Source: Rhina ancylostomus
Lineage: Eukaryota
Assembly (NCBI GenBank): GCA_030265395.1
Contig: JARFYF010000017.1
Location: 33,833,339 to 33,897,338, forward strand
DNA length: 64,000 bases
Direction of reading: 5' to 3'
Shown: positions 7,425-52,760 of the stretch, piece after piece
How positions within the stretch are numbered: position 1 is the first letter of the stretch
How the letters are laid out: each line of letters starts with the position of its first letter
Program-made: the position numbers and the translations under genes
Notes under the pieces: generated by a model
What the model was told of the DNA's origin: nothing
The model's database searches: none
Seen by the model: the letters and a program-made list of their open reading frames with translations, nothing else

Positions 7425-7776
7425 GAAGGCATTTGGCTCATTGCTTTATGATGGATTCCAGGACAGCAGTCCTATCATTCTCATTACCTCTTTCCCTTTT
7501 TCCATGTACACCTGAATTTCTACTCTCCCACACATCCATCAACTCCCCCTTGACTCTTTTTGCCATTAACCTACACAAAATGGTAATTAACAATGGGCAA
7601 TTAATCTACCAGGAGGCCATTGGGAACTGGGTGAAAACCGGAGCCCCTGGAAGAAACACAACCAGTCACAGAGAGAACGTTCAAGCACTACAAAGACACC
7701 ACCTAAGGACAGGATTGAATCCCAGCCTCTGGAGCTGCGAGGCAGCAGCATTAACTGTTGAGGCACTATGCCACCC
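7425..7776 (-). mobile_element. tRNA-derived V-type (HE1-like) SINE
   Basis: Minus strand starts gggtggcatagtg...gctgctgcctcgcagctccagaggctgggattcaatcc (A/B-box head), followed by the V-domain gtttcttccaggggctccggttt. Paralog of 12797-13062. Explains spurious ORF 7340..7969. Confidence 0.75.
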
Positions 7777-11989: not shown

Positions 11990-14012
11990 ATTTGAAAGCT
12001 ATTCCAGGAACAGAATCAAGTATATCTAAAAACTGAGCTGCAAACCTTCACACAGGACCACTTACATGCTTAACACAAAGCACCATGCAATAGAAAAAGC
12101 TGTATGATCAAAGCTCTGAGCCACCACATCCAGTTGTGAATGGTGGTTAACACTAACAATAGGAGGAAACTCCAAAAACATGCTCATGTTTCAACAATAG
12201 CAGAGCCCCGCATATGAGTAGCAAAGACTAGACCAGCATTTGCAACTGAGTGACAGATCCATATTGGGTTCCTTCTGACATACTGACTAGCATAGAAGAC
12301 AAACCAATTTAGTTCACTCCAAATAATATCAAGAAACCCAGAAGAGCAAAGACTGGGTTGTGGTGAAGATTCATCACACGGCTGTAGTGGTGAAGATTTA
12401 TGCTGTATCATTCTAATACATTTCTGACCCAGCTATTACAAGTGCAGTTACAGTGCTGGCATCTGCTGGACGATATGGAAAGATGTCCAATTATGTGCTA
12501 TTTACAAAAATCAGGATAAATACAATCTTGCTCAATTGCCAAGCAGTATACTCTCCATCATCAGTAAGCTGATGGAAGGTATATCAACAGTACTGTTCAA
12601 CTCTGGATTGTGCTATACCTTTGGCCCAAAGAGGGGCCAAAGAACTGAGTTCCAGAGCCCTTGACATCAAGGCAGCATATGTTGAATATGCCCTCAAGCA
12701 GCCTTGGTAAAATTGAAGTCAATAGGAATTGACACAAAATCACTCTACTGGTTAGAGTCATACTTAATAAGAAGGAAGCTGGCCAGCCTGAGAATATTTT
12801 TAAATTTTATCTTTTATTTTAAATTTTTATTTACAGCGTGGTAACAGGCCCTTCCGGCCCAACGAGTCCATGCCGCCCATTTTAAACCCCAAATTAACCT
12901 ACCTGTACGCCTTTGAAATGTGGGAGGAAACCGGAGCACCCAGAGGAAACCCACGCAGACACGAGAGAACATACAAACTCCTTACAGGCAGTGGCGGGAA
13001 TCGAACCTGGGTCGCTGGTGCTGTAATAGAGTCGTGCTAACCACTGTGCTACCGTGCCACCCTTGCAAGCATCTTTGCAGGAATTTCTCAGGGCACTATC
13101 CTTGGCCCAAACACCTTCACTTATGTTATCAATGGCAATCCTTCTTCATGAAGTAAGCAGTGGGGATGCACTGGTAGCGCAACACTGATGTTCTTCTTTC
13201 ATTCTCAATTCCTCAGAAAGTGAAGCAATCCACAACTTATACAATATTCAGGCAAGATCTGATGTGTGGCATCAAAATTACTTGCCACTTAAATGCCCAG
13301 CAATTGCCATTTACCCTATGAGTGATTCCAACCATTTACGTCTGGCATTCAACAGCAGTGCTATTACCAAGTCTTCGACACACTGAAGTAGCTAGGTGGT
13401 TGGGAGATATCAGTGGCCAGAAACTTAGCTGTATCTATGACAGGAGTGCCATGACTACAAGAGCAAGTCAGAGGCTATCTATCCTATGGCAGTGACCCTT
13501 GATCTGACTTCCAAAAGCCTTATCACCATCTTCAAGGTAAAATTGTGATGCAAACTTATCTGGATAAATCTAACTCAGACAACACCCAAAGCTCATCACC
13601 ATCTGGGACAAGGTAGCCTGCTTGATTGATGCCCCTTCTACCACCCTAAAAGTTCACCCTCTTTCCACCACCAGTACTCTAAGGTTGCAAGTCTGTACCA
13701 TGTAAAATAATTGCAAAAATTACTCGCCAGGGCTTCTTCGACAGCACCCCTTAAATTTGTAACCTCTACCATGAAGAAGAATAAAGGCAGGAAGGCCACC
13801 TATAGGTTTTCATCCAAATAAAATACTTTCCAGACTTTGGAATATCTTGCCATTCCTCCACAATTGGTGGAACAAAGTTATGGATGCTCTTCCTTCACAA
13901 GCAGAACTTCAGCAGTCCAAGAGGCAGCTCAGAACCACTCTCTCTAGGGCAGGTAGGAATGGGCAATATACATTCTTGGCAGTGACACCCCCAATTTATA
14001 ACTGAGTAATAA
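11990..14012 (+). mobile_element. Decayed L2-clade LINE (ORF2 3' part plus tail), interrupted by a SINE
   Basis: gatcaaagctctg..ccacatccagttgtgaatggtgg, cccttgacatcaaggcagcat (ALDIKAAF-like), gcagga..ctcagggcactatccttggccca (GVPQGSVLGP-like) and tail ctagggcaggtaggaatgggcaata. Confidence 0.75.
12797..13062 (-). mobile_element. Young tRNA-derived V-type (HE1-like) SINE nested in the L2
   Basis: Minus strand: gggtggcacggTAGCACAGTGGttagc (A box) ... GGTTCGATTCC (B box) ... gcgtgggtttcctctgggtgctccggtttcctcccaca (V domain) ... gttgggccggaagggcctgtt (CR1-like tail) + A-rich end. Many CpGs retained. Confidence 0.88.
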
Positions 14013-15094
14013 AATATGTCTGCACTGAATTAGCTGAAAAATTGGATGCAGTTTTATATTTCAAAGAAAAAGAAAAATGTTACTTTTGATGAATTAATTT
14101 TAAATAAAATTTCTCATTCTAAATCCAGTTTAACATATTTACAGAGCTGTTCTATGAACTTAAGTGCTGCTAAATTTGCTGTACTCCTTCCCAGGATAGG
14201 AAAATATGTGTTGGTCTCTGAAGCTGTGAACGACTACTTATTTATTCAGTCGCCCATCTGGTATAGCTTGACTTAACTTTTTTTTTGTGGAATTTGCGAG
14301 TAGCTTGATGTATTTGACATCTGCATGACAGCTTCCTTGTATTTGAAAGGTGCAGTATGCTGCAATAACCCTGCTGTGTATATTTGTCTATGCATCAAGC
14401 TGAGGAGCAGCACTTAGCCATAAATGACAATCAAATGTGAGCAAGTACTAAAATTCAAGTGCATTTTCTTGTTGTTATTTTGGTATAGGTTGGATTTTTG
14501 ACATGGACAGTGACATGTGTCATAATTTCTATGGCCTCCATAATTTTTTTGTACTCATAAGCTGTATGGAATGATGAAAGCTATAGAACTGCAACATAGT
14601 GGAATTATTTATTTGCAGTTTAACATTTTATTATAAATTTTAACTGCATTTGTAATGAAACCACAATTATTTAGTTATCTTATGAGTAAGAAAGAATTAC
14701 CAATTAAATACCTGTTTTGACCAGGTGTAGCACTGCATTGCAACTCAGACCGGACTGGCACAACTTTACAATTTCATTTTGGCCATCTACCATGTTTCTT
14801 TGAAAGTATAAAGTCTCAAATAGAGTGCAGTACCTTCCACAAAAGAACTAGAGTGCCAGTTGTTCTGACCTTATTTGGCAATTCTGAGCATACAGCTTAG
14901 GTGAGATAATGGTTGAAACTTGGGTAAGTCATGCAAGAAGTAATACATAGTTATGAGAAAGCCTAATAAGGACCTTTTTAAAAAAAAATGCTAATTGTAC
15001 AAATATTGATTTGATGTTACTTGCACAAAATTCTACCATGCACGCAAGAACACTGATGCTAAAACTTTAATCTTTGTATTCTATTTAGCCACAG

Positions 15095-15995
15095 GATTTA
15101 CTTGAATTTGGAAAAGCATGGACTTATTAAGGACAGAAAACATGACTTTGTGTGGGGGGGAAGGCCTGTTTCACAAATTTGATTGAGTTGTTTGAGGAAG
15201 TGACAAAGATGATTAATAAAAGCAGGACAGTGAATACTGGTCTACATGGACTTTATTATAGCATTTGACGAGGTCCCTCGTGGTAGGCTGGTCCAGAAAA
15301 TTAAGTCACATGAGATCCACGGTAAGTTGGACCCAAAATTGTCTAGGTCATGTAAGGAAGTGGTAAAGGGGTGTTTTTCTGACTTTCATCACTGGTCAGT
15401 GACCTCATTGGTCCCATTGGATATAAAAGTGAGTATAAAAGTTGAGAAGTCATGCTGCAGCTGAATAAAAACTGGTTAGGACACCAAGGATGTGGAAGCT
15501 TTGGTGAGTGTGCAGAGGTTCATCAGGATGTTGTCTGGACTGGAGTGCATTAGCTATAAGGAGAACTTGGACAAATTCGGATTGTTTTTTCTGGAGTATT
15601 GGAGGCTGAGAGCAACCTGATAGAAGTATATAAAATTATGAGAGGCATAGGTACGGTAGATAGTCAGAATCTTTTTGTAATGGGTAGAAATGTCAAGTAC
15701 TAGAGGGCATAGGTTTAAGGTGAGAGGGAGAAAAGTTTAAAGGAGAATTGTGAGGTAAGTGTTTTTGCTCAGAGAGTGGTAGGTGCCGAGAACGTGCTGC
15801 CAGGGAAGGTGGTAGAAGCAAATACAATGGCAATATTTAAGGGGCATTTAGACAGACACATGAATAGGCAGGGAATGGAGGGATATGGATCATGTGCAGG
15901 CAGATGGGATTAGTTGAGATTGACATAATGGTCAACCCAGTCATGTTGGGCTAAAGGACCTGTTCCTGTGCTATACCTTTCTGTTCTATGTTCTA
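15095..15995 (+). mobile_element. CR1/HER1-like LINE, internally deleted ORF2 3' region and tail
   Basis: ORF 15246 reads MDFIIAFDEVPRGRLVQKIKSHEIHG (CR1 RT motif YMDFSKAFDKVPHGRLV). Ends gggctaaaggacctgttcctgtgct..ttctatgttcta, a typical CR1 tail. Confidence 0.88.
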
Positions 15996-17296
15996 AATTG
16001 GAGGGCTGAGGCCTGCTTGAACATTGGTTAAAGGATTCCATCTTACCTAGCCCATTGCCAGGGAATCCAAGGTTTTCATCTTCCTCCAAGTATGTGCCTT
16101 CTTTAAATGACTTATAGATATGCTATCATTCTATCTCAGAGGAAGGATGGGATTCCCTTTTTGCTAAAAGTGCACCCCCAATATTTGAATACAATTAACA
16201 GAGTATTTTAGTTATTGAGTTCTATTTTGAGTTATAAAATTGTGAGATTTTTTAATAGTGAATTACATGGTTAAAATTTTGCACAGCACATTTGTATGTT
16301 GTTGTATATTTTAAATCTGTTCCATTTGTTGTGAAACTTTGATTTCAAGAGATTGAAATCTTCCACTGGAGGTGAATCAGAGAAAGTTGTGGTTTTAGTC
16401 ACAGAAAAATCTTTTATAACATTTGTTTTTACATGTGTAAACTCTCATCAGTTGGTCGGCATGCCAAAATGATACTATATTTATTTCCTTGTATTTCATT
16501 GTTGCTTACAATGTTCATATGTCAAAAATTCCATGTAGGGTTCACTACGCTGAAAAAAAAACAAATTAGTAGAAACCTTTACTTATACAGTATGCCTGTG
16601 ATAAATCAGTATGCATCTGTCAGGGAGCTGAATGGTGAGCACCATCTCTTCACCACTCAATGTAAATTCCAGGCCAATATTTATATGAATTAAGCCAATA
16701 TTAGATTTTCAGTAGAACCTCTACATCCATTGTTGATTCTGTGCTTTTCATTTAGATGAAATGCAACCTTACCTCTTGCCTATTTATCCTTGTATTCAGT
16801 ACATCTCCAAAACTGTTTTATAGCAGGATTATTAACATTTGCCTCACTCTGTTGTCAATTTAAGCATTATAAATTTTTTTACGTCGATGCTGGCTGGAGG
16901 GAAACTAGCTAGCTTAATCACATTTCCCAGATCTTGGTGCGTATCTTTGTAGGTTACAGTGCTAAGTGCCATTAAAGTATTGCAAGTCTAATGTTCCTAC
17001 CACTCGTTTTCTTAGGTAATTAAGTTCCAGACCCCTCACCACTCCAGATGATTTTTCCCCCCCTTTAACCTTTCTACCAATTAGTTTAAACCTATGATCC
17101 TGGTTGTTGACCTCCTCTGCTAAGATAAATCCACTCCGTTTCAAACCCTCAATTTTATGCACCTCAGTTAAATCTCCCCTTCCAAACAACACAACCCCAG
17201 CCTCTCTGCACTTTCCTCAGAGCTAAGATTCCCTAGTCCTGAAGTAACAATCTCATTAATCTCATTTATGTCCCTTTCCAGTACTATTATATCCTT

Positions 17297-17580
17297 GAGA
17301 AACAAAAGACTGCAGATGCTGGAATCTCGATGAAAAACACTATGATGCTGGAGGAACTCAGCAGGCTAGGCAGCATCTTTGGAGAAACGCAGGTGGTCAA
17401 CATTTCGCGCCAGGATCCTTCTTCAGGACTCATCAATATTTCGGGTTAGGACCCTTCTTCAGGACCTGACCTGTCCTGTCCTGAAGAAGGGTCTTGACCC
17501 AAAACATTGACCGCCTGCTGTTCTCCATGGATACTACCTGGCCTGCTGAGTTCCTCCAGCATCATAGTGTTTTTCAACTA
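17297..17580. mobile_element. Fold-back element, probably derived from Penelope-like terminal repeats, with three hammerhead-like motifs and a TSD
   Basis: 17331-17366 is the perfect 36-bp reverse complement of 17541-17576, and imperfect pairing extends to ~100 bp. Flanked by the direct repeat tatatcctt (17288-17296 / 17581-17589). Confidence 0.8.
17432..17465 (-). ncRNA. Minimal type I hammerhead-ribozyme-like motif with complete core
   Basis: Minus strand reads GUC-CUGAAGA-A-GGGU(CCUA)ACCC-GAAA-UAUU-GAU: helix I GUC/GAU, CUGANGA and GAAA cores, 4-bp helix II, palindromic helix III remnant. Activity untested. Confidence 0.55.
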
Positions 17581-18567
17581 TATATCCTTATTGGAATGCA
17601 GTGATCTTAACAGAAAACAGTATTCTACCTGTTGTCTCACTACTTTATAAATTTCTCTGCTCTTTAATGAATCAAAGAAAGAATCAAATATGCTGCCTGA
17701 ATTGTCTTGTCTTGACTCCTTTGTTCCTCTACATTTCTTCTCGGTATTCTATCAGTTATTGCATCTGTTGGTTTGTTTTCTTCTATAGATTGAAGTCTAT
17801 TTGTCTGTTTTATTTTTACCTGACCAAGCCACTGACATCTTCCTGTAGTCTACAGATTTCTTCCTGTCTATAAATTGCACAATTTGTTTCTCAGCTCTGT
17901 TTCTCTGATCAGATCATTTCCCTATTTTGATCATTTTGTTCATTCAATAAAATTGTTTCAGTTCCAGGAAAGTTGTCAAAGTTGACTTTTTCTGATTACA
18001 AGCTTCCATTGTCTGAATTTCTTCACTGCATTTAAGAAGAAATATTAATTCTCGGGCAGAAAGGTGTCATATCATGTGGGCTGCCCATCCGCAGTGTGAG
18101 ACAAGACCCAATCCATTTTAACAACTGGGCATGATTAACCTTCTACTGAGTAGCTGTATGTCCGAAAATTGTCCAGAGGCAATTTGTGGATTCTAATGGT
18201 TGATTGGCTAAGGGTCACCAAGGTAGTAATTAGACAAGTCACCACATAGGATACGTGGTATTTTTGAAGGATTGAAGGAGTGGGGATTTCATGGCAGCAA
18301 TGGCCCAAATTTTATTTGTTTGTCCAAACGAAGCATTACTTCTCCTGCTGGACTTAATTCAGTTCAGTAACAGGTATATTTGCATTGAAGTCCTGATGAT
18401 GCCAGAGGATGCTGATTTACTGATCAGAGGCTCCTATAAGTCAGGTGAGTGTCCAACCACCCAAAAAAATGACTCTGGATCAAAAAAAATGGTATTCACT
18501 TCTGTGGGTGGTGGGGGGGGGGCTTGGTCCATGATGGTGGTGTGAGTGGATAATTTCTTCATGATGG

Positions 18568-18683
18568 AAAAGCAAAAACTGCAGTTGGTGGAAATCAGAA
18601 ATAAGATTAGAAAATATTGGAAATGGAAATAGACTGCATTTGTGGTAAGAGAAACAGAGTTAATGTTTCAGGTTGATGATCTG
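18568..18683 (-). mobile_element. Single arm of the Penelope-like terminal-repeat family
   Basis: aaaagcaaaaactgcag..ggaaatcagaaata..gagaaacagagttaatgtttcaggttgatga parallels the left arms at 17301 and 51992. Confidence 0.6.
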
Positions 18684-19284
18684 AAAATTTACCCTTATAA
18701 CTTATAATATTTTTTTCAACTTTTGAAGATAAAGGTTATGAATGCACACTATAGCACAAATTTACTTTGGCAATTTAAATTGTGTAGATAGGTATGTTGG
18801 CCCAGGGTATGAATCAGTGCAAAAGTAAGAAGATGCCAGAATTGAATTGTGATCTGTTCCATATTTACCAATCTCAGCAAGGTGGTCTTAAGGAGGATGC
18901 ACAAATAGTTTTGGGATCTCAAGAGTATGGACAAAAATACTTCTGATTGCTACCCAGCAACTCCAGGTAAAAACACTGGAAAGGAGATGTGGAAGGAAAG
19001 TCCTGTGTTAGATTATGGTGGCCTGTATGGTTCAAAGTTTAAGCTCATACTTGAAGGATGGTCATTTGGCAAAAGTACTGTAAAACTAACAGCTAATATG
19101 AAACTATGCCAAGAATGTGTCAGGAGGGTAGGGATTAAGGAGAAAAGGAAAACAACTGGAAATAATCAAAGTGGGAAAACCAGCAGAATTTATATGTACA
19201 ATTTAAATTTTTGCCCTAATAATCAATTGCCTTACTACCCATTCAAACTAATGATTTAATTTTTGTTACTTTTTAAGTGCAACT

Positions 19285-22491: not shown

Positions 22492-22569
22492 AGGCAGAAG
22501 CTGCTAAGAGAGATTGAAGACCAGAAGCTTCCATATTTAACACCCAAAGATGTGGAGTTTGAACAGCTG
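22492..22569 (+). CDS. FTO: FTO exon 2 (78 nt, phase 0-0)
   Basis: Pyrimidine tract + CAG acceptor (..ttttctaacag) and GTATGT donor. Translates [26 protein letters not shown], matching human exon 2 ([26 protein letters not shown]) in length and in the LPYLTPKD motif. Confidence 0.96.
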
Positions 22570-24129: not shown

Positions 24130-24350
24130 AAAAGCAAAATACGGCAGATAGCTTTCTCATCACAGAAGCTGCCCTGTTTTCTGAGTATTTCCAGCATTTT
24201 ATTTTTTTTATTTCAAATCAATGACTGGTTGTTAGAACTAATGAAAGGTCATTGCACAGAGAAGCTAAATTTATTTTCCTCCCCATTGATGATGACTAAT
24301 CTGAGTTGTTCCAGCAATTTGTGTTTGTGTTTTGAATTTCCAGTATATGC
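24130..24350 (+). mobile_element. Degenerate tandem copy of the Penelope-like terminal-repeat family
   Basis: aaaagcaaaatacggcagat, ctgagtatttccagcatttt, ctaatgaaaggtcatt (mutated CUGAUGA core) and a second ctgagttgttccagcaattt. Confidence 0.55.
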
Positions 24351-24759
24351 TTAAATATTGCACTGCTTTTTTTTGCAATTATACAAAAAGTTGTTCTAAA
24401 AGTAGTCATAGAATGTTCATTGGAATCTATTACTTTAAAACAAATTTACCATCAGAAAAATGTTCAAATTAATCATATCCTATCATCTTTGTACTGCTGC
24501 AGTAAATCTATCAGATATATTGATAAGAGAGTTGTTGCCTCACATCACTCACTCAGTAAGTAGTGAAATCCACATTTAATACTTCGAATACTTATTAATT
24601 TTTTAACTTATTATCATGTAATGCATAGGTACTGCAGGGACTCTCAATCTCTCCTTGCATTTTTAGCATTATCCAGAGAAATGTGCGGTATACTGAAGAG
24701 CTTTTGGAAGATGTGTATTAATTGAAAAGTGTAATGGAAAACATTTTTTCTCTGTTTAG

Positions 24760-25402
24760 TCAAAGGCTAAATATTCCAAATTACACTTGAGACAAGCCAG
24801 CTGTGTACCTGAGGAAATTCATCAAAAAGTTCGGCAAGGATTGACAGCTCTGCGAGATTACAAATGTTTTGCACAAGATCTTGTTCAAATAAAAGGCAAA
24901 GATGTTCTTACACCAGTTTATCGACTACTTGTAGGAAACCCAGGCCACACATATCGCTACTTGGACACAAGGCTGTTTGCAATACCTTGGCCAACCCATG
25001 GTGTTGAGGTGAAGTACAGCAGTGATGAAATAGGTAAAGCCTGCCAAGCTATTAAAGATCTTAATGAATACTTTCATGGGGAAGCAGTGAAGATTTTGTT
25101 AGATCATTATTCAGCTGCGAATAAGGAAATGGGATTTGTGGAGAAGACAACAACTTCTACTTCAGTTGAGGGCTCTGAGAGTGTGAAAGGAGTTCATTAC
25201 AGTCAACAAAACAATGCTGATACTGTGCTAAAAAATAGAACTTCCTTTAATGTGGCTCTTTTGAACTACATGGACCCTTCAAAAATGAAATACTTAAAAG
25301 AGGAACCTTATTTTGGAATGGGAAAGATGGCTGTGAGTTGGCATCATGATGAGAACCTGGTGGAAAGGTCAACTGTTGCAGTGTATAACTACAGCTGTGA
25401 TG
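24760..25402 (+). CDS. FTO: FTO exon 3 (643 nt, phase 0-1); AlkB-like catalytic domain including the HxD iron-binding motif
   Basis: Acceptor ..tctgtttag, donor GTATGT at 25403. In frame with ORF 24787..25512. Contains KYSKL, GKDVLTPVYRLLVGNPGHTYRYLDTRLFAIPWP and LLNYMDP..YLKEEPYFGMGKMAVSWHHDENLVERSTVAVYNYSC, all diagnostic of FTO. Confidence 0.98.
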
Positions 25403-30840: not shown

Positions 30841-31769
30841 CCGAAGAAAACCTTTTGAGCCAGGTAAGACCTTGATATTCCAATTTTCTGTCTTTCTTGA
30901 AGACATGGTTTTTATTCATGGCAGGCACACTTAGATTTCAGTGTTAGCCAAACTCAGACAATGCCTTGATTACTCAACAGTCAAGATTAATTTTTCAACC
31001 GTTGAGTTTATAAGTCATCTAAAACATTGTTGGTTTCCACTAGCTTATTTATAAGTTGTACAATTATAAGATGAGATGTTTACTTGATACTGAGAGAACG
31101 AACTTGATTCTTTGTCAGGCATTGTGACTTAAATATTCAATTACCTCACTTGATCCTGTGAACTGCCAAGTCTGTCTTCTATCTTATGTTGGAGGGACTA
31201 TATCCTTGTTTGGCAAACTAAATCTACATATAGATCATTGATGTTACTTAGCTTGAGATCTTAGCATTATTTTATACAATGTAATGAAGATTATTTTTGA
31301 CTGGACTGCTAATATTTGAATTTTTTGTAATGTAATATTGCCCAGCTTTTAATTCTAAAGAGCAAATAATGGTAAATTGTAAACATGTGTATCCTCATCT
31401 AAAGATGAATAATTTATCTTTGCAGACCTAATCAAATAACCCTGTAAGTTGCACGTAAACTGCAGTTTTGCCTTTCTAGTCGATAGTTATGTTACAGTTT
31501 CAACTGATATATGCTGTGAATACAGGAAGACAAGAATAGAAGAGTGAAGGAGGGTGAGGCTGAGACACACATCCAACCCTCTACAGTGTGTGCTAGTTTT
31601 CTTTCTGCCTGTTTCAATGTACTGCTGTTAATCAAGATCACCTTTTACTTTGTACATCACCCTCATTGATTGTTCTAGTCATCAAAAAAGTTGTTCATCA
31701 AGAGGAATATGTGCCTAAAGCAATATTGCATATTGTGAATACTGAAGGGGTCCAGGAAAAGATAGAAGA

Positions 31770-31915
31770 AATGTTTGATGTCTGAGACCCTTATAGGGGT
31801 CTATACTCTTATGCCCAGTCTGACAAAGGGTCTTGGACCTGAAACGTTATCTCTGTTTCTCTTTCCATAACTGTTGCCTGATCTCTTAAGTGTTTCTAGC
31901 ATTTTCTGTTCTTGA
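31770..31915 (+). mobile_element. Penelope-like terminal-repeat copy with mutated hammerhead-like core
   Basis: 31820-31848 reads CTGACAA-A-GGGTC(TTG)GACCT-GAAACGTT, followed by the family arm ctctgtttctctttcca..gttgcctgatct..tttctagcattttctg. A short inverted remnant lies at ~31770-31793. Confidence 0.65.
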
Positions 31916-35294: not shown

Positions 35295-35632
35295 ATATAC
35301 AAAACTATTTAGGGGCATAAATAGGATAGGTAGTAAGAAATGTTTCCTCATAGCAAAGGTGTATAAAGTCAGAGAGCATAGTCTTAAGATAAGGAGGTGG
35401 AGCTTAGAGGGCATCTGGAAATTTTTTTTTCACCCAGAGGGTGTTTGGAATCTGGAATGCACTACTGGTGAGTTGGTGGAAGCAGAGACTCTCACAACAT
35501 TTAAAAAGTATCTTGGTGAGTACTTGAAGCAACAAGGCATAGAAGGCTACAGGCCAAGTACTGGAGAATGGGGTTTTGAGAGATGGGTCAGCATGAATGT
35601 GGTGGGCCGAAAGGCTCATTTCTATGCTGTGA
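35295..35632 (+). mobile_element. CR1-like LINE 3' fragment
   Basis: ORF 35359 reads HSLKIR..FFF..VWNL..LVEAETLTTFKKYL. Tail gtggtgggccgaaaggctc..tatgctgt. Confidence 0.8.
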
Positions 35633-38340: not shown

Positions 38341-38630
38341 TTGTACACTTTTGTTTGATTATGATTAAAGAACAAGAGATGTGAGCTACCTTGCATGATG
38401 TAAGCATACTGGGGAGGTTACCTGCCAATGTTATGATATACAGATATGTCTGCAAATGAGAAGCTGGGGTGGGGGGGGGGTGGTCAAGTAGATTGCTTCC
38501 TCATGCAGGTTTGTTTACTTCTTGCAGGGATAATCTGGCAGTAATTTCTTTCTCTGGATAGTCAACAAACAGCAGAATAGATTCGTCAGTTGAGGGATGT
38601 GATAGTTGATTAGCAGAGGGGTCCATGAGT

Positions 38631-38724
38631 AAAGCAGAAAATGCTGGAGATACTCAGCAAGTCAGGTCACATTCGTGAGAAGAGAAACAGAATTAACATT
38701 TCAGGTTGGAGACTTTGTTCAGAA
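38631..38724 (-). mobile_element. Single arm of the Penelope-like terminal-repeat family
   Basis: aaagcagaaaatgctggagatactcagcaagtcagg..gagaaacagaattaacatttcaggtt..ttcagaa. Confidence 0.68.
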
Positions 38725-39468
38725 TCAGGTTTATTATCACTGACATATGTCATGAAATTTGTTTTTTGGCAGCAGTACTGTGCAAGACATAAAGACATAA
38801 ACATTACATAAGTTACAAAAATAAATAAATAGTGCAAGAGAGGAATAACGAGGTAGTGTTCATGGACTGTTCAGAAATCTGATGGCGGAGGGGAAGAAGC
38901 TGTTCCTGAAACATTGAGTGTGGGTCTTCAGGCTNNNNNNNNNNNNNNNNNNNNNNNNNNNNNNNNNNNNNNNNNNNNNNNNNNNNNNNNNNNNNNNNNN
39001 NNNNNNNNNNNNNNNNNNNNNNNNNNNNNNNNNNNNNNNNNNNNNNNNNNNNNNNNNNNNNNNNNNNNNNNNNNNNNNNNNNNNNNNNNNNNNNNNNNNN
39101 NNNNNNNNNNNNNNNNNNNNNNNNNNNNNNNNNNNNNNNNNNNNNNNNNNNNNNNNNNNNNNNNNNNNNNNNNNNNNNNNNNNNNNNNNNNNNNNNNNNN
39201 NNNNNNNNNNNNNNNNNNNNNNNNNNNNNNNNNNNNNNNNNNNNNNNNNNNNNNNNNNNNNNNNNNNNNNNNNNNNNNNNNNNNNNNNNNNNNNNNNNNN
39301 NNNNNNNNNNNNNNNNNNNNNNNNNNNNNNNNNNNNNNNNNNNNNNNNNNNNNNNNNNNNNNNNNNNNNNNNNNNCCTTTCCACTGCTGATCCCTCAATG
39401 AAGACTGGTGTGTGTTCCCTCGACTTCCCCTTCCTGAAGTCCATAATCAATTCCTTGGTCTTGCTGAG
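38720..39468 (-). mobile_element. Young Rex1/Babar-type LINE fragment spanning an assembly gap
   Basis: ORF 38860..39513 reads SKTKELIMDFRKGKSREHTPVFIEGSAVER...LKTHTQCFRNSFFPSAIRFLN. The 3' tail starts agaatcaggtttattatcactgac. Confidence 0.87.
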
Positions 39469-47797: not shown

Positions 47798-48120
47798 CCA
47801 TAGAATACCATAGAACCATAGAACAATACAGGCCCTTCGGCCCACCATGTTGTGCCGCCCATCAAACCACACCTCACACTATCTANNNNNNNNNNNNNNN
47901 NNNNNNNNNNNNNNNNNNNNNNNNNNNNNNNNNNNNNNNNNNNNNNNNNNNNNNNNNNNNNNNNNNNNNNNNNNNNNNNNNNNNNCCCTTCACAAAGCCA
48001 TGCTGGCTGCCCCTAATCAGTCCATGACTCTCTAGGTGTTCATATATCTTATCCCTCAGAATTCTCTCTAACAGCTTACCCACCACAGACGTGAGACTCA
48101 CCGGTCTGTAATTCCCTGGG
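47798..48120 (-). mobile_element. Young CR1-like LINE whose middle lies in a gap
   Basis: Tail repeats ccatagaa(tac)/ccatagaa left of the gap. Right of the gap the minus strand reads an undisrupted PGNYRPVSLTSVVGKLLERILRDKIYEHLESHGLIRGSQHGFVK. Confidence 0.9.
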
Positions 48121-48254
48121 AAATATTTGGATGCATCCTTTAACAGATTTGGGGACAAGCATTTGGAAATAAAATTCATACAAACATAATTAAATATTGA
48201 ATCACTTATCACAGTGTACACAATAAAAATATATCAGACAATTTAAGTAAGTAA

Positions 48255-49410
48255 TTTTGTTGAGGTCCCACTGGTAGGCTGGTCCAGAAGGTTCAAAGCA
48301 AATGAGATCTAAGGCAAGCTGGCTAATTGGAGCCAAAATTGGCTTGGTAATAGGAGGCAGAGGATGGTGGTGAAAGGATTCTTTTCTGATTGGAAGTCTG
48401 CGACTCGTGGTATACCACAGGGATTAGTACTGGGACTTTTGTTGTTTGTGATATAGATTAACGACTTGGATGTGAATATAACAGGAAACATTAGTAAGTT
48501 TCTGGATGACACAAAAAATGGTGATGTTGTGGAGATTGAGGAAGGTTGTTTAAGGCCACAGGAGGGTGCACTGTAGATCAGATGGAAAGTTGAGCAGAGC
48601 ATTGGCATATGGAATTTAATTCCAACAAATGCAAGATGATGCATTTTGGGAAGTCGAATTAGGGTAAGACATGTACAGTAAATGGTAGGGAACCTAGGAA
48701 TATTGATGAACAGAGAAACCTGGAGGTTCAAGTCCATTGTTCCTTGAAAGTGGCAATGGAAATCAATAAGACAATGAAGAAGGCATCTCGCATGTTGCCT
48801 TCATAGGTAGGGGCAGAGAATATAAGTGTTTGGATTTTTTTGCAACTTTACAAAACACTGGTTAGGCCACATTTGGAGTATTATGTGCATTTCTGGCTAC
48901 ACTATAGGAATGATATGATTGTGCCGGAGAGAGTGCAGAGGAAACTCACCAGGATGGTGGGTTGGAGGACTAGTTATGGGGAAAGAATGGATAGGCTGGA
49001 CTTGTTTTCCTTTGAGTAAATGAGGCTTAAGGGTGACCTTATTGAAGTGTATAAGAATATGAGAGGCAGAGATAGGGCAGATAGTCAAAATCTTATTCCC
49101 GTGCTGGGGTATCAAAAACAAGAGGGCATAGAATTGAAGGTGAGAGGAAGGAGTTTTAAAGGGGTTCTGAGGGATAAGTTTTTTTTTACACAGAAGTGGT
49201 TGCTATGTGGAACATGCTGGCAGAGGAGGTGATGGAATCAGATATAATTACTATGTTTAAAAGCTGTTTTGACAGATGCTTACAGAGGCAAGGTGTAGAA
49301 GGATATGGTCCTAATGCAGGCCAATGGGATTAGTGTAGATGGGCAAAAACGTTGGCCTGAATGTGGTGGGCCAAAGGAACTGTTTCTTTGCTATATGACT
49401 GTGTATGCAA
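48255..49410 (+). mobile_element. CR1/HER1-like LINE 3' ~1.15 kb (RT to tail), decayed
   Basis: ggtataccacagggattagtactggga (GIPQG.VLG), aagtttctggatgacacaaaa (KF.DDTK), RLKGDLIEVYK, and tail gtggtgggccaaagga..gctatatgactgtgtatg. Confidence 0.9.
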
Positions 49411-50439
49411 TGACTTATGGTATAGCATGAGCTTGCATCAATAACTATGATGGGAACTATTTTCAGACAGAATTTCTGTTTGAATTTAGTGGGAGTGGTT
49501 TTATTAAAGAAAATTGAAGGCAAAACATTGAAGTGCATTTCGATTCATATAGCTTAATTGCATAGTTATACTTTGTATATGTCACTAATCTTGTCATGAT
49601 GTCTCTTTGAACAAAGTTGTTCTTCTGCATTGCTAAATTTTGCACTAAAATATCAAACACATCTATAATCCTAGTGAGTGGAGGAACAGTGCAATCTGGC
49701 TTGGGCTAATGAACCTCTGAGGTAAGATTGTTTGAAATTTATCACTGGGCTGTTTGTCAGAAAGGTTGGAAGCAGTAATTTTAACAATGCAATGGATACT
49801 GTTTTTTTAAATTTGTTCAATTTTGCCAAAACATTGGATCTTAAATTCAATTGAATTGTTTGCCTACATGTGCAATAGCAGTGTGGGATATTATCTATTG
49901 TTTATAATGTGCTGGAACATACTGACCATCTGCGCCTACTTTTCCTGCATATGGTGGGCTGAACAAGCTAACCCTCCATATTTGACAGGCTTCTGGTGAA
50001 GTGAGTGGGCTCCAAGTGGTGAGTAGCTCTTCAGCATCATATCTTGACATGTTGTCTCCTGAATTCCCTCACAGCCTTTGACAGATCACCAGCTGGCAAA
50101 GGCTTTTTAACTATTAAATCTCTCTGTTAGTTGGGGACATTTTTAAAAGCTATTCAAATAGATTTAAATGTTTTTAAAAGTGATTACAAATATAATAAAA
50201 CACTCAAAAGTAATGTAAAATAACTAAAGCAAAATAAGAAAAGAACTAACCTGCATTTTATTTTTCTCACTTGTTTTGCTTAAAGGAACTANNNNNNNNN
50301 NNNNNNNNNNNNNNNNNNNNNNNNNNNNNNNNNNNNNNNNNNNNNNNNNNNNNNNNNNNNNNNNNNNNNNNNNNNNNNNNNNNNNNNNNNNTTTTTCTTA
50401 AAGGAACTAGACACTTTAACCCATCAGTTACATGCCAAC

Positions 50440-50710: not shown

Positions 50711-51991
50711 CAATAGCAATGCCGTCACATNNNNNNNNNNGTCAGTGACTCCAGTCAAAATAATGAAGACATCATTCCAGTGCCAGCTCTTCCTGGCATA
50801 AAACAGATTCAGAATGCATCCAGGTCCCTCCTTGTCATGTCACGGCTTTGCTCAGTGGCAAGTTCAGCAGAGGAATGGACTGTGGTTTCACTGACATTGA
50901 CTTGCAGTAAATCTCAAATTGCAACCCCCACTCCCGCCCAAAGACTGTTTCATTGAAATTGTGTGTTATTCATCCAGAGTAGAGACCCATTTTACTCCAT
51001 CTTTCTTCATTAGAGAACTCTCTTGAACCAGGATTCAACCTAGAGAATCTTTGCTACCCTACTTTTAATGCAAGTATATTCTTCCTTAAACTATATGGTA
51101 ACTGTACTTAGTGCTCTATGTGATTTCACCAATAACTCTGTAGGGTTGCAGGAAGATAACCTATAAAAATAGCTAAAGGCATATCCTCATTGCACTCTGC
51201 TTCCAAAATTCATTTCCTTTGAAATTATTTCCTCACATTATATGTGAAATGGTCATGCCTTTGCAACCATCATGATCTGACCGAATGGAAGGCAATGTCG
51301 GTAATGGAATGCTAAGTGCTTATGCAACAGATGGAACTGAGCATCCACTAATTCCCTTCGATTTATTCAAGACTAACCTATTTAATATTTGGTAGTTTTA
51401 AAGGAAGATTTCTGAGTGTGTAGTAACATTCCATTATTTAGAATTATTTGGAGCTCCGATTGCTTTGTTGTCATATTGCTCTTCATTTCTGCTCATTTTT
51501 TTTCAGATGCCCTGTTAGCACTTATTTTTCAGTCACTGGAGTTTGAGGATATCTCCATGCTGCCATAAGTGATAAGATATCTGACCTCTAAGCCATCTCA
51601 TAAATGACTGCAAATTTACAAGTGCAACTGTTGGTAGAAACTAGACTAATATTACACCATGTGTTGGTCATTGTTTAAATCCTGATTACTTTCTGCTATT
51701 GTGATAACAAAACTCAGAGCATTGGTATGTCAGTCGTAGTATGACAAGGAGGTTATGTCTTTTCCATTGTATTGATTAAAGGGAAACTGGGGCAGTGTAG
51801 TTCATATTAACAGTGACAGCAATTTTCCAAGTATAAATACTGAAAAGGAGAATCTGGATTTGCAAACTTCCATCCTCTCTCTTTTAATTTTGCAAAGCAC
51901 AGGCATAGCTATCAGTATTTGTACTGGTGGTTTATTTTTCCCAAAATGTTGTATACTTGATTGTGTATACTAATATGTCATTACTAGTAGT

Positions 51992-52197
51992 ACAGAAACC
52001 AAAGGTTCTAGAAATCTGCAGCAGGTCAGATAACATTTGTGGAGGCAGAAACAGAATTAATATTTCAGTTTGATGACCTTTCATCAGTTCTGATTAATCG
52101 CAACACCAACTGTTTCACTATCTACAGATGTTGGCTGAATATTTCCAGCATTTTCTGTTTCATTTTAGATTTCCAGCATCTGTAGTATTTGGTTTAA
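51992..52197. mobile_element. Fold-back copy of the Penelope-like terminal-repeat family
   Basis: Left arm gcaggtcagataacatttgtggaggcagaaacag and right arm ctgtttcactatctacagatgtt..atttccagcattttctg are inverted. Minus strand 52059-52087 reads CTGATGA-A-AGGTCATCAAACT-GAAA-TATT. Confidence 0.72.
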
Positions 52198-52369
52198 TGA
52201 AGGTGTAATTTTCTGATTTCACATTATTAGTGCACAATTAAACAATGCAGGAAAGACAGCACAAAGCGACTGGATCATTTATTTTCATTGACATTTAGCA
52301 CAACTCCCAAGTTACTTAGGACACAGTGGCAACTATTAATAAAACTGCAACCTTTACAACTAGTGAGGA

Positions 52370-52505: not shown

Positions 52506-52617
52506 GAAGTGTTACTTGCTTGTACTGCCAAGATTTTAACACAGACAAATTTAGTAGGTAACCTACTCATACGATTAGATCTTTGTAGATTGTGATAGCA
52601 GTTTTAAGATCTTAAAT

Positions 52618-52760
52618 TAAAAGCAGGATGTGCTGGAAATACACAAGTCTGTCAGCATTTGCGAAAGTGAAACCGACTAGCTTCTCTTTTGGGCACAGAG
52701 CCTTATGGATACCGGTGGACTTGATTATGTTTTGTTTCTGATTTCCATCCTTTGCTGCTC
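52618..52760. mobile_element. Very degenerate two-armed copy of the Penelope-like terminal-repeat family
   Basis: aaaagcagga.gtgctggaaatacac..tcagcatttg on the left, ttttgtttctgatttcca on the right. Confidence 0.4.

Follow-up and report, generated by a model that had tools for sequence, protein, structure and literature searches.

Insertions of Penelope-like elements (PLEs) have been described as comprising an inverted, 5'-truncated copy together with a tail of 30-40 bp at one end (PMC8557442), and in rotifers a 31-bp tail, target duplications of 8-10 bp and palindromes at head-to-head junctions have been reported (PMC3846280). Dual minimal hammerheads are known to occur on opposite strands, 100-700 bp apart (PMC4209133), and G12 is the proposed general base of the hammerhead (PMC6155905). 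In the anole, the PLE protein was found to cut and extend both strands of AT-rich DNA, to start at two sites that bound the tail and to insert uncut RNA (PMC11167929).

Here, we analyzed an insertion in contig JARFYF010000017.1 of Rhina ancylostomus, lying within a stretch of 64,000 nucleotides (hereafter the window, to whose first letter all positions refer). With a probability of roughly 0.85, the element is a single old PLE insertion consisting of two head-to-head copies of little more than the 3' terminal repeat. Its anatomy, family membership and decay are directly visible in the window, and we regard it as an ordinary, decayed and extremely 5'-truncated PLE insertion.

Structure and boundaries of the insertion

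The element occupies positions 17297-17576 and is 280 bp long. An earlier note, made from the letters alone, had recognized the insertion and given its size as ~284 bp; the shorter length follows because the target duplication reaches 14/13 bp and the right arm ends exactly there. The flanking duplication noticed at that time is confirmed, with 9 bp exact (17288-17296 and 17581-17589) or, when one indel is allowed in the alignment of the flanks, an AT-rich left copy of 14 bp (17283-17296, plus strand) and a right copy one base shorter (13 bp, 17577-17589, plus strand). None of the 13 runs of N in the window assembly lies within 6 kb of the element.

Two inverted arms of 99 bp face each other with 15 mismatches. 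The left arm (17331-17429) is an element 3' end whose RNA sense is on the minus strand, and the right arm (17478-17576, plus strand) is an element 3' end without a tail. All 15 mismatches fall in the inner 63 bp, while the outer 36 bp (17331-17366 and 17541-17576) are perfectly complementary, as had been stated before for arms of ~100 bp. A perfect run of this length has a P value of 0.009 under plain decay and of 0.09 with five CpG-type changes set aside. Arm-to-arm conversion or the absence of CpG in the outer part are possible causes.

The most telling feature had been overlooked in the earlier description. The left arm alone has a 34-bp extension (17297-17330, minus strand) with no partner on the right, which we read as the PLE tail as defined in PMC8557442 and PMC3846280, and the PLE reading is therefore strengthened. 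This tail is an imperfect repeat, with a period of 29 bp, of the TCCAGCAT box in the arm (17352-17331 and 17323-17297, minus strand). Both 3' ends of the element have their own copy of this box, which begins 22-27 nt away and is a candidate start signal for the reverse transcriptase. Measured from helix II, the two ends of the element are at 88 and 122 nt, and the start sites of the anole element at 111-118 nt (PMC11167929). The same relation between box and tail, with a period of 28 bp, is seen at 52141-52179.

At the centre, positions 17466-17477 form a head-to-head junction between two 5'-truncated ends, made up of 12 bp of stutter with a 5-bp period (iterated CCTG-W). Three hammerhead motifs surround it, and all of them are found where the earlier note had placed them. 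Motif 1 (17432-17465, minus strand, antisense to FTO) is a duplicate with a 36-bp period and the only one of the three with the full consensus. Motif 2 (17396-17429, minus strand) has an intact core and helix I, and two of the four pairs of its helix II are broken. Motif 3 (17478-17511, plus strand, FTO sense) has G12 changed to A, and its positions 15.2/16.2 are unpaired. All three segments end 3-4 nt upstream of the hammerhead core.

The folding energy of the element is -170.9 kcal/mol on the plus strand and -177.4 kcal/mol on the minus strand (z -18.4 and -15.8, respectively), and no shuffled sequence was as stable on either strand (0/100 each). A miRNA precursor was rejected as a candidate, with scores of 17-21 bits against cut-offs of 78-100.

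Location in FTO and in an older LINE

FTO is on the plus strand of the window. Its exon 2 (about 22492-22569, plus strand) sets the strand and the intron, and exon 3 starts at 24760. Exon 3 shares 97% identity with Pristis pectinata, compared with 85-86% for Mobula and Hemitrygon, which makes the host a sawfish-like ray. The element lies 4.9 kb upstream of exon 2. The assignment to intron 1, given in the earlier note, is made from position, because FTO exon 1 was not found in window positions 1-22490; no CpG island was found there either. The window appears to start inside FTO intron 1.

The insertion was received by an older LINE relic, which flank alignments place at 16907-17282 on the minus strand and which probably continues to the right of 17590. 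The left flank matches another LINE relic at 15100-15995 (E 8.5e-5). For the right flank alone, the match to the relic at 48200-49500 was not significant; when the two flanks are rejoined into an empty site, the alignment to that same relic spans the junction with a score of 50, the shuffle maximum being 51. We infer the empty site from LINE relics only. Among 12 LINE fragments scanned with Pfam, a single neighbouring one had a weak RT match (E 0.0015). By its motifs, the host relic would be CR1-like. The earlier claim of a one-piece insertion into an older CR1 thus stands in two respects, a single event with target duplication and an older LINE as its recipient, and the name CR1 is putative.

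Some further repeats were observed in the window. LINE relics with RT-like motifs are present at 15040-15995, 35296-35629 and 47987-49400, and at 48.2 kb a minus-strand RT piece adjoins a plus-strand continuation, as in a 5'-inverted insertion. SINE-like repeats at 12820-13070 and 7590-7770 presumably resemble known elasmobranch SINEs. No tRNA gene, and hence no tRNA-SINE head, was detected. A bacterial promoter scan remained at chance level and is not relevant to a vertebrate. Copies of the element numbered 0 in bacterial and archaeal genomes (two scans), and the phage collection gave no match.

A family of related copies in the window and in other rays

A profile of five arms identified 12 segments in the window, six of them at places outside the profile set (E 3e-11 to 5e-3), and the same profile found 0 segments in the reversed window. 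Including the element, the window contains eight family loci, and the seven others are decayed and belong to an older subfamily. One of them, at 51985-52200, has head-to-head arms and a one-sided homologous tail and is an older element of the same plan. Its centre (~52083-52095) consists of 5-bp arms around 2 bp at the hammerhead 5' edge, the tail is found only on the plus-sense arm, and most of one motif is deleted. Another, at 24153-24352, is a rearranged relic with a sense arm, an antisense motif remnant, a palindromic centre (~24227-24241), a sense motif, an arm and a tail. Further decayed relatives are located at 2633-2746, 18570-18700, 31745-31911, 38630-38728 and 52600-52710. In the relative at 31820, CG is kept at positions 15.2/16.2, and a degraded antisense partner may lie upstream of it.

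A tail is present in four of 11 window arms and absent in seven; three of the four tail calls have P < 0.001 and one has P 0.007 against shuffles, and two of the four are the references themselves. The head-to-head centres at 17.47, 52.09 and 24.23 kb all lie at the hammerhead 5' edge.

Translated antisense copies of the element were also detected by protein search, where they form the N-termini of four Pristis gene models and one Mobula gene model. The affected models are TRPV3-like, chondroadherin-like, JAM-like and PTPMT1 isoforms. In two of these copies, the match breaks off at one and the same codon of the antisense motif, suggesting that a cryptic splice donor is located there. One Pristis copy starts at the base matching 17297 and has 82% identity over 45 residues. 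At the residue where motif 3 has Leu, Ser is present in all four Pristis copies, as would be expected if they kept G12; this is judged from amino acids and not from DNA. At the codon covering position 15.2, two Pristis copies have Val and two have Ile; this split, again read from amino acids rather than DNA, would match the prediction of CpG decay (see below). The tandem motif is absent, at the amino-acid level, in both Pristis copies that read through that position, and is therefore not shared by the family in general. In one Pristis copy, the sequence beyond the motif corresponds to neither a further motif nor the inverted arm.

No RT or GIY-YIG domain was found among the 20 gap-free ORFs scanned (of 36 window ORFs of at least 90 aa). 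Protein searches with the translated arms likewise gave no link to RT or GIY-YIG, which is weak evidence either way. In the sense frames, a search of 1.84 billion protein representatives returned four matches, all of them spurious repeats, and these repeat proteins were rejected as relatives (34-43% identity summed over many stretches). The five antisense-frame matches are host genes.

The PLE marks observed are thus an inverted head-to-head copy, the 34-bp one-sided tail, a terminal hammerhead, duplication of an AT-rich site and dispersal in multiple copies. The origin from a PLE terminal repeat proposed in the earlier note is upheld, as the minimal hammerheads, target duplication, head-to-head ends and one-sided tail match the published PLE signature. 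Against it count the missing link to an RT or GIY-YIG sequence, a 14-bp duplication that exceeds the 8-10 bp of rotifers (PMC3846280) and a perfect outer 36 bp that plain decay does not explain.

The same head-to-head plan could also belong to a non-autonomous fold-back unit, i.e., a hairpin that is transcribed and moved whole by PLE protein in a MITE-like manner. Such a unit would account for centres at the same place, the hammerhead 5' edge, at 17.47, 52.09 and 24.23 kb and for the lack of coding sequence near any relic, and pLTRs alone have been reported to drive insertion in trans (PMC3846280). We nevertheless consider it improbable. The centres differ between loci (a 12-bp stutter here versus 2 bp elsewhere), solo arms exist in the window, and the Pristis copy that continues past the motif enters neither a second motif nor an inverted arm. 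In addition, a hairpin RNA of -171 kcal/mol would probably be a poor template.

Hammerhead motifs and their decay

The bare pattern CUGANGA...GAAA has six matches in the window, which is not significant (8/100 shuffles reach six). Because this core pattern is not rare, we used a strict descriptor built from the published consensus of minimal PLE hammerheads (PMC4209133 supplement). A search with a minimal type I hammerhead descriptor had been suggested in the earlier note, and it gave exactly one match in the 64-kb window, motif 1 at 17432-17465 (minus strand), and 0 matches in 200 dinucleotide shuffles. This motif has the core CUGANGA, an extra base, a helix II closed by G-C, GAAA, the palindromic pair, UH and helix I. 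The defects that had been described in the other two copies were both recovered: motif 2 passes the descriptor only with two helix II mismatches, and motif 3 passes only with G12 relaxed and 15.2/16.2 free. With G12 changed to A and 15.2/16.2 unpaired, motif 3 is predicted to be dead. The hammerhead families of Rfam gave no match at E values up to 10 in 16800-18100 and no match at the gathering score in the whole window, and other Rfam matches were only weak ones of the hairpin type.

Positions 15.2/16.2 read TA, TG and CA in the three motifs. The CpG observed/expected ratio of the window is 0.17, and given this depletion, these readings fit the decay of a CG palindrome. TA is also found as a natural palindromic variant in the published alignment (PMC4209133 supplement). 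The three motifs differ among themselves at 5-7 of 34 positions.

Two pairs show compensatory change between two subfamilies. Pair 10.1-11.1 is G-C in three, A-U in three, G-U in one and broken in two of nine rows, and pair 2.1-1.1 is C-G in three, U-A in three and broken in two of eight rows. The rows are hand-registered decayed copies; two rows were dropped as out of register, another lacked its 5' part and a further one its 3' part. This covariation in helices I and II is only suggestive because it amounts to single events, one per pair between the two subfamilies, read by hand. The motifs are whole across their cleavage site, and therefore the template RNA was uncut there.

Predicted cleavage

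The earlier note had suggested that the tandem pair might form a double hammerhead in cis. Its linker is only 2 nt long, the inner helix I would require a 2-nt loop, and the helix II of motif 2 is broken. Even for the isolated 92-nt minus-strand RNA, the predicted probability of the full double hammerhead is 3.6e-11, so this suggestion is not sustained; the monomer (4.8e-3) and a hybrid of the two motifs (2.4e-3) are less rare. For the whole element RNA, the respective values are 7.8e-6 for the monomer, 6.8e-30 for the hybrid and 1e-37 for the double hammerhead. In FTO-sense read-through RNA, the pairing probability of helices I and II of motif 3 is 0.0. On either strand, the blocking arm is transcribed before the motif. 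The folding model ignores tertiary contacts and proteins, so that the hybrid might still form in a short antisense RNA.

A working antisense ribozyme, in which the minus-strand tandem would cleave in cis, either in the double-hammerhead form or in a hybrid form that combines core 1 with the cleavage site of motif 2, is in our view very improbable. Core 1 and its helix II are intact, the two motifs can be drawn with a 4-bp helix III (A-U, U-G, A-U, U-A) and a lengthened helix I between them, and this hybrid costs only 3.7 kcal/mol in the isolated 92-nt RNA. Metazoan minimal hammerheads are also thought to act as dimers (PMC4209133). However, the full double form is predicted at P 3.6e-11 in isolation and the hybrid at P 6.8e-30 in the whole element, and the tandem is antisense to FTO, with no sign of an antisense start within the junction. 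Experience with related motifs points the same way: even designed dimers and trimers cut poorly (PMC4209133), the motif of the anole PLE requires its protein (PMC11167929), and eight of nine frog retrozyme dimers did not cleave (bioRxiv 10.64898/2026.07.22.740005).

According to the folding model, the element probably does not cleave itself in read-through RNA. It would be inert today, as the G12A motif is the only one in FTO pre-mRNA and is trapped there within a long hairpin. The hammerhead motifs are real but inherited, and probably inactive in this copy.

Other possible origins

The element is short and non-coding, with inverted arms and a flanking duplication, and could on this account be taken for a DNA-transposon MITE whose arms are terminal inverted repeats and whose hammerheads are incidental. 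Its asymmetric ends largely refute this: the true ends are not mutual inverted repeats, the left having 34 extra bp. Target duplications of the common MITE superfamilies are 2, 3, 4, 8 or 9-11 bp long, and a duplication of 13-14 bp fits none of them. Moreover, solo arms occur, as do arms both with and without a tail, and the motif passes the full descriptor and covaries. A MITE with no link to PLEs, which the earlier note had named as a competing origin, thus agrees with neither the differing termini nor the 13-14-bp duplication, and we judge it extremely improbable.

Hardly any credence can be given to a non-LTR retrozyme spreading through circular RNA, the retrozyme-like unit of the earlier note: two hammerhead motifs do stand in tandem, and animal retrozymes, found in the one cartilaginous fish sampled, have been argued to derive from PLE termini, but they are described as head-to-tail tandems with a complete motif per unit and a consensus of 51-972 bp (bioRxiv 10.64898/2026.07.22.740005), whereas the tandem unit of the element measures 36 bp, one tandem motif is broken, the main layout is inverted rather than a head-to-tail array of complete hammerheads, and both Pristis copies that read through the position lack the tandem.

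Proposed mechanism of insertion

If the element is a PLE insertion, the PLE protein would have cut an AT-rich site with a 14-nt stagger, leaving two 3' ends. The left 3' end would have primed cDNA at the outer of two start sites, giving rise to the tail. The right arm has two possible sources: the second nick may have primed synthesis at the inner start site, or the first cDNA may have folded back on itself. Twin priming is favoured for the right arm because solo tail-less arms end at about the same place, although one copy cannot separate it from fold-back. Synthesis may have halted at the short palindrome that the family has at the hammerhead 5' edge, and the ends may then have been joined with stuttering, which would give a junction with a 5-bp period as from end-joining or aborted fold-back. 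The 36-bp duplicate of the motif could stem from one 36-nt jump back in synthesis or from later slippage, and the 5-7 differences per 34 positions among the motifs do not separate the two.

A broader proposal is tentative and, as a whole, unlikely. In this view, ray genomes would harbour PLE mini-elements in very high abundance, head-to-head and devoid of ORFs, in which the mechanism of insertion is recorded. The tail would be an old duplication of the TCCAGCAT signal by which the reverse transcriptase is positioned, cDNA would be primed from both target nicks, one at each box, and the cDNAs would anneal at the palindrome at the hammerhead 5' edge. The hammerhead region would then serve as a programmed stop-and-join site for DNA synthesis and not as a cutter. 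If this is true, the many genomic copies make the stop-and-join reading of the mini-elements testable without bench work.

The element itself has little import, being a decayed repeat whose intact motif is oriented opposite to FTO transcription. Its family is of modest value: the many short head-to-head copies, some with a tail and some without, offer natural material for studying how inverted insertions of PLEs are made. In addition, the antisense strand adds repeat-derived N-termini to ray gene models, which is relevant to annotators. In the literature searched, we found no description of this family in cartilaginous fish; the retrozyme preprint, with one such fish, may include it.

Comparison with known systems

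The non-LTR retrozymes (bioRxiv 10.64898/2026.07.22.740005) share with the element a non-coding state, an origin from PLE termini and a type I hammerhead. They are described as head-to-tail with intact motifs, whereas the element consists of an inverted pair and a 36-bp local duplication.

The Poseidon element PAc of Anolis carolinensis (PMC11167929) resembles the element in its two 3' ends, which lie ~90-120 nt beyond helix II and are separated by the length of a tail, and in its uncut motif and AT-rich target. PAc is a full element with a tested protein, while the ray element is known from sequence alone and no start of a PLE ORF is seen in its arm.

The EN+ PLEs with inverted pLTRs (Penelope/Poseidon and Neptune; PMC8557442, PMC3846280) have the same head-to-head 3' ends, the same 30-40-bp tail at one end, the same palindrome or filler at the junction, and the same target duplication at an AT-rich site. 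The element differs from them in having no ORF remnant, arms of only 99 bp, a 14-bp duplication and one extra motif copy. Its clade within the PLEs cannot be placed without an RT.

The minimal type I hammerheads of metazoan PLEs (Cervera and De la Pena 2014, PMC4209133) agree with the motifs found here in the 3-bp helix I, CUGANGA with one extra base, G10.1-C11.1, the absence of helix III, the palindromic 15.2/16.2 and the close pairs on opposite strands; the element differs in its helix II of 4 bp and in that two of its three motif copies are broken. The part of the supplementary alignment of PMC4209133 examined here lists no cartilaginous fish. The kind of element is known, and the family extends minimal PLE hammerheads to rays.
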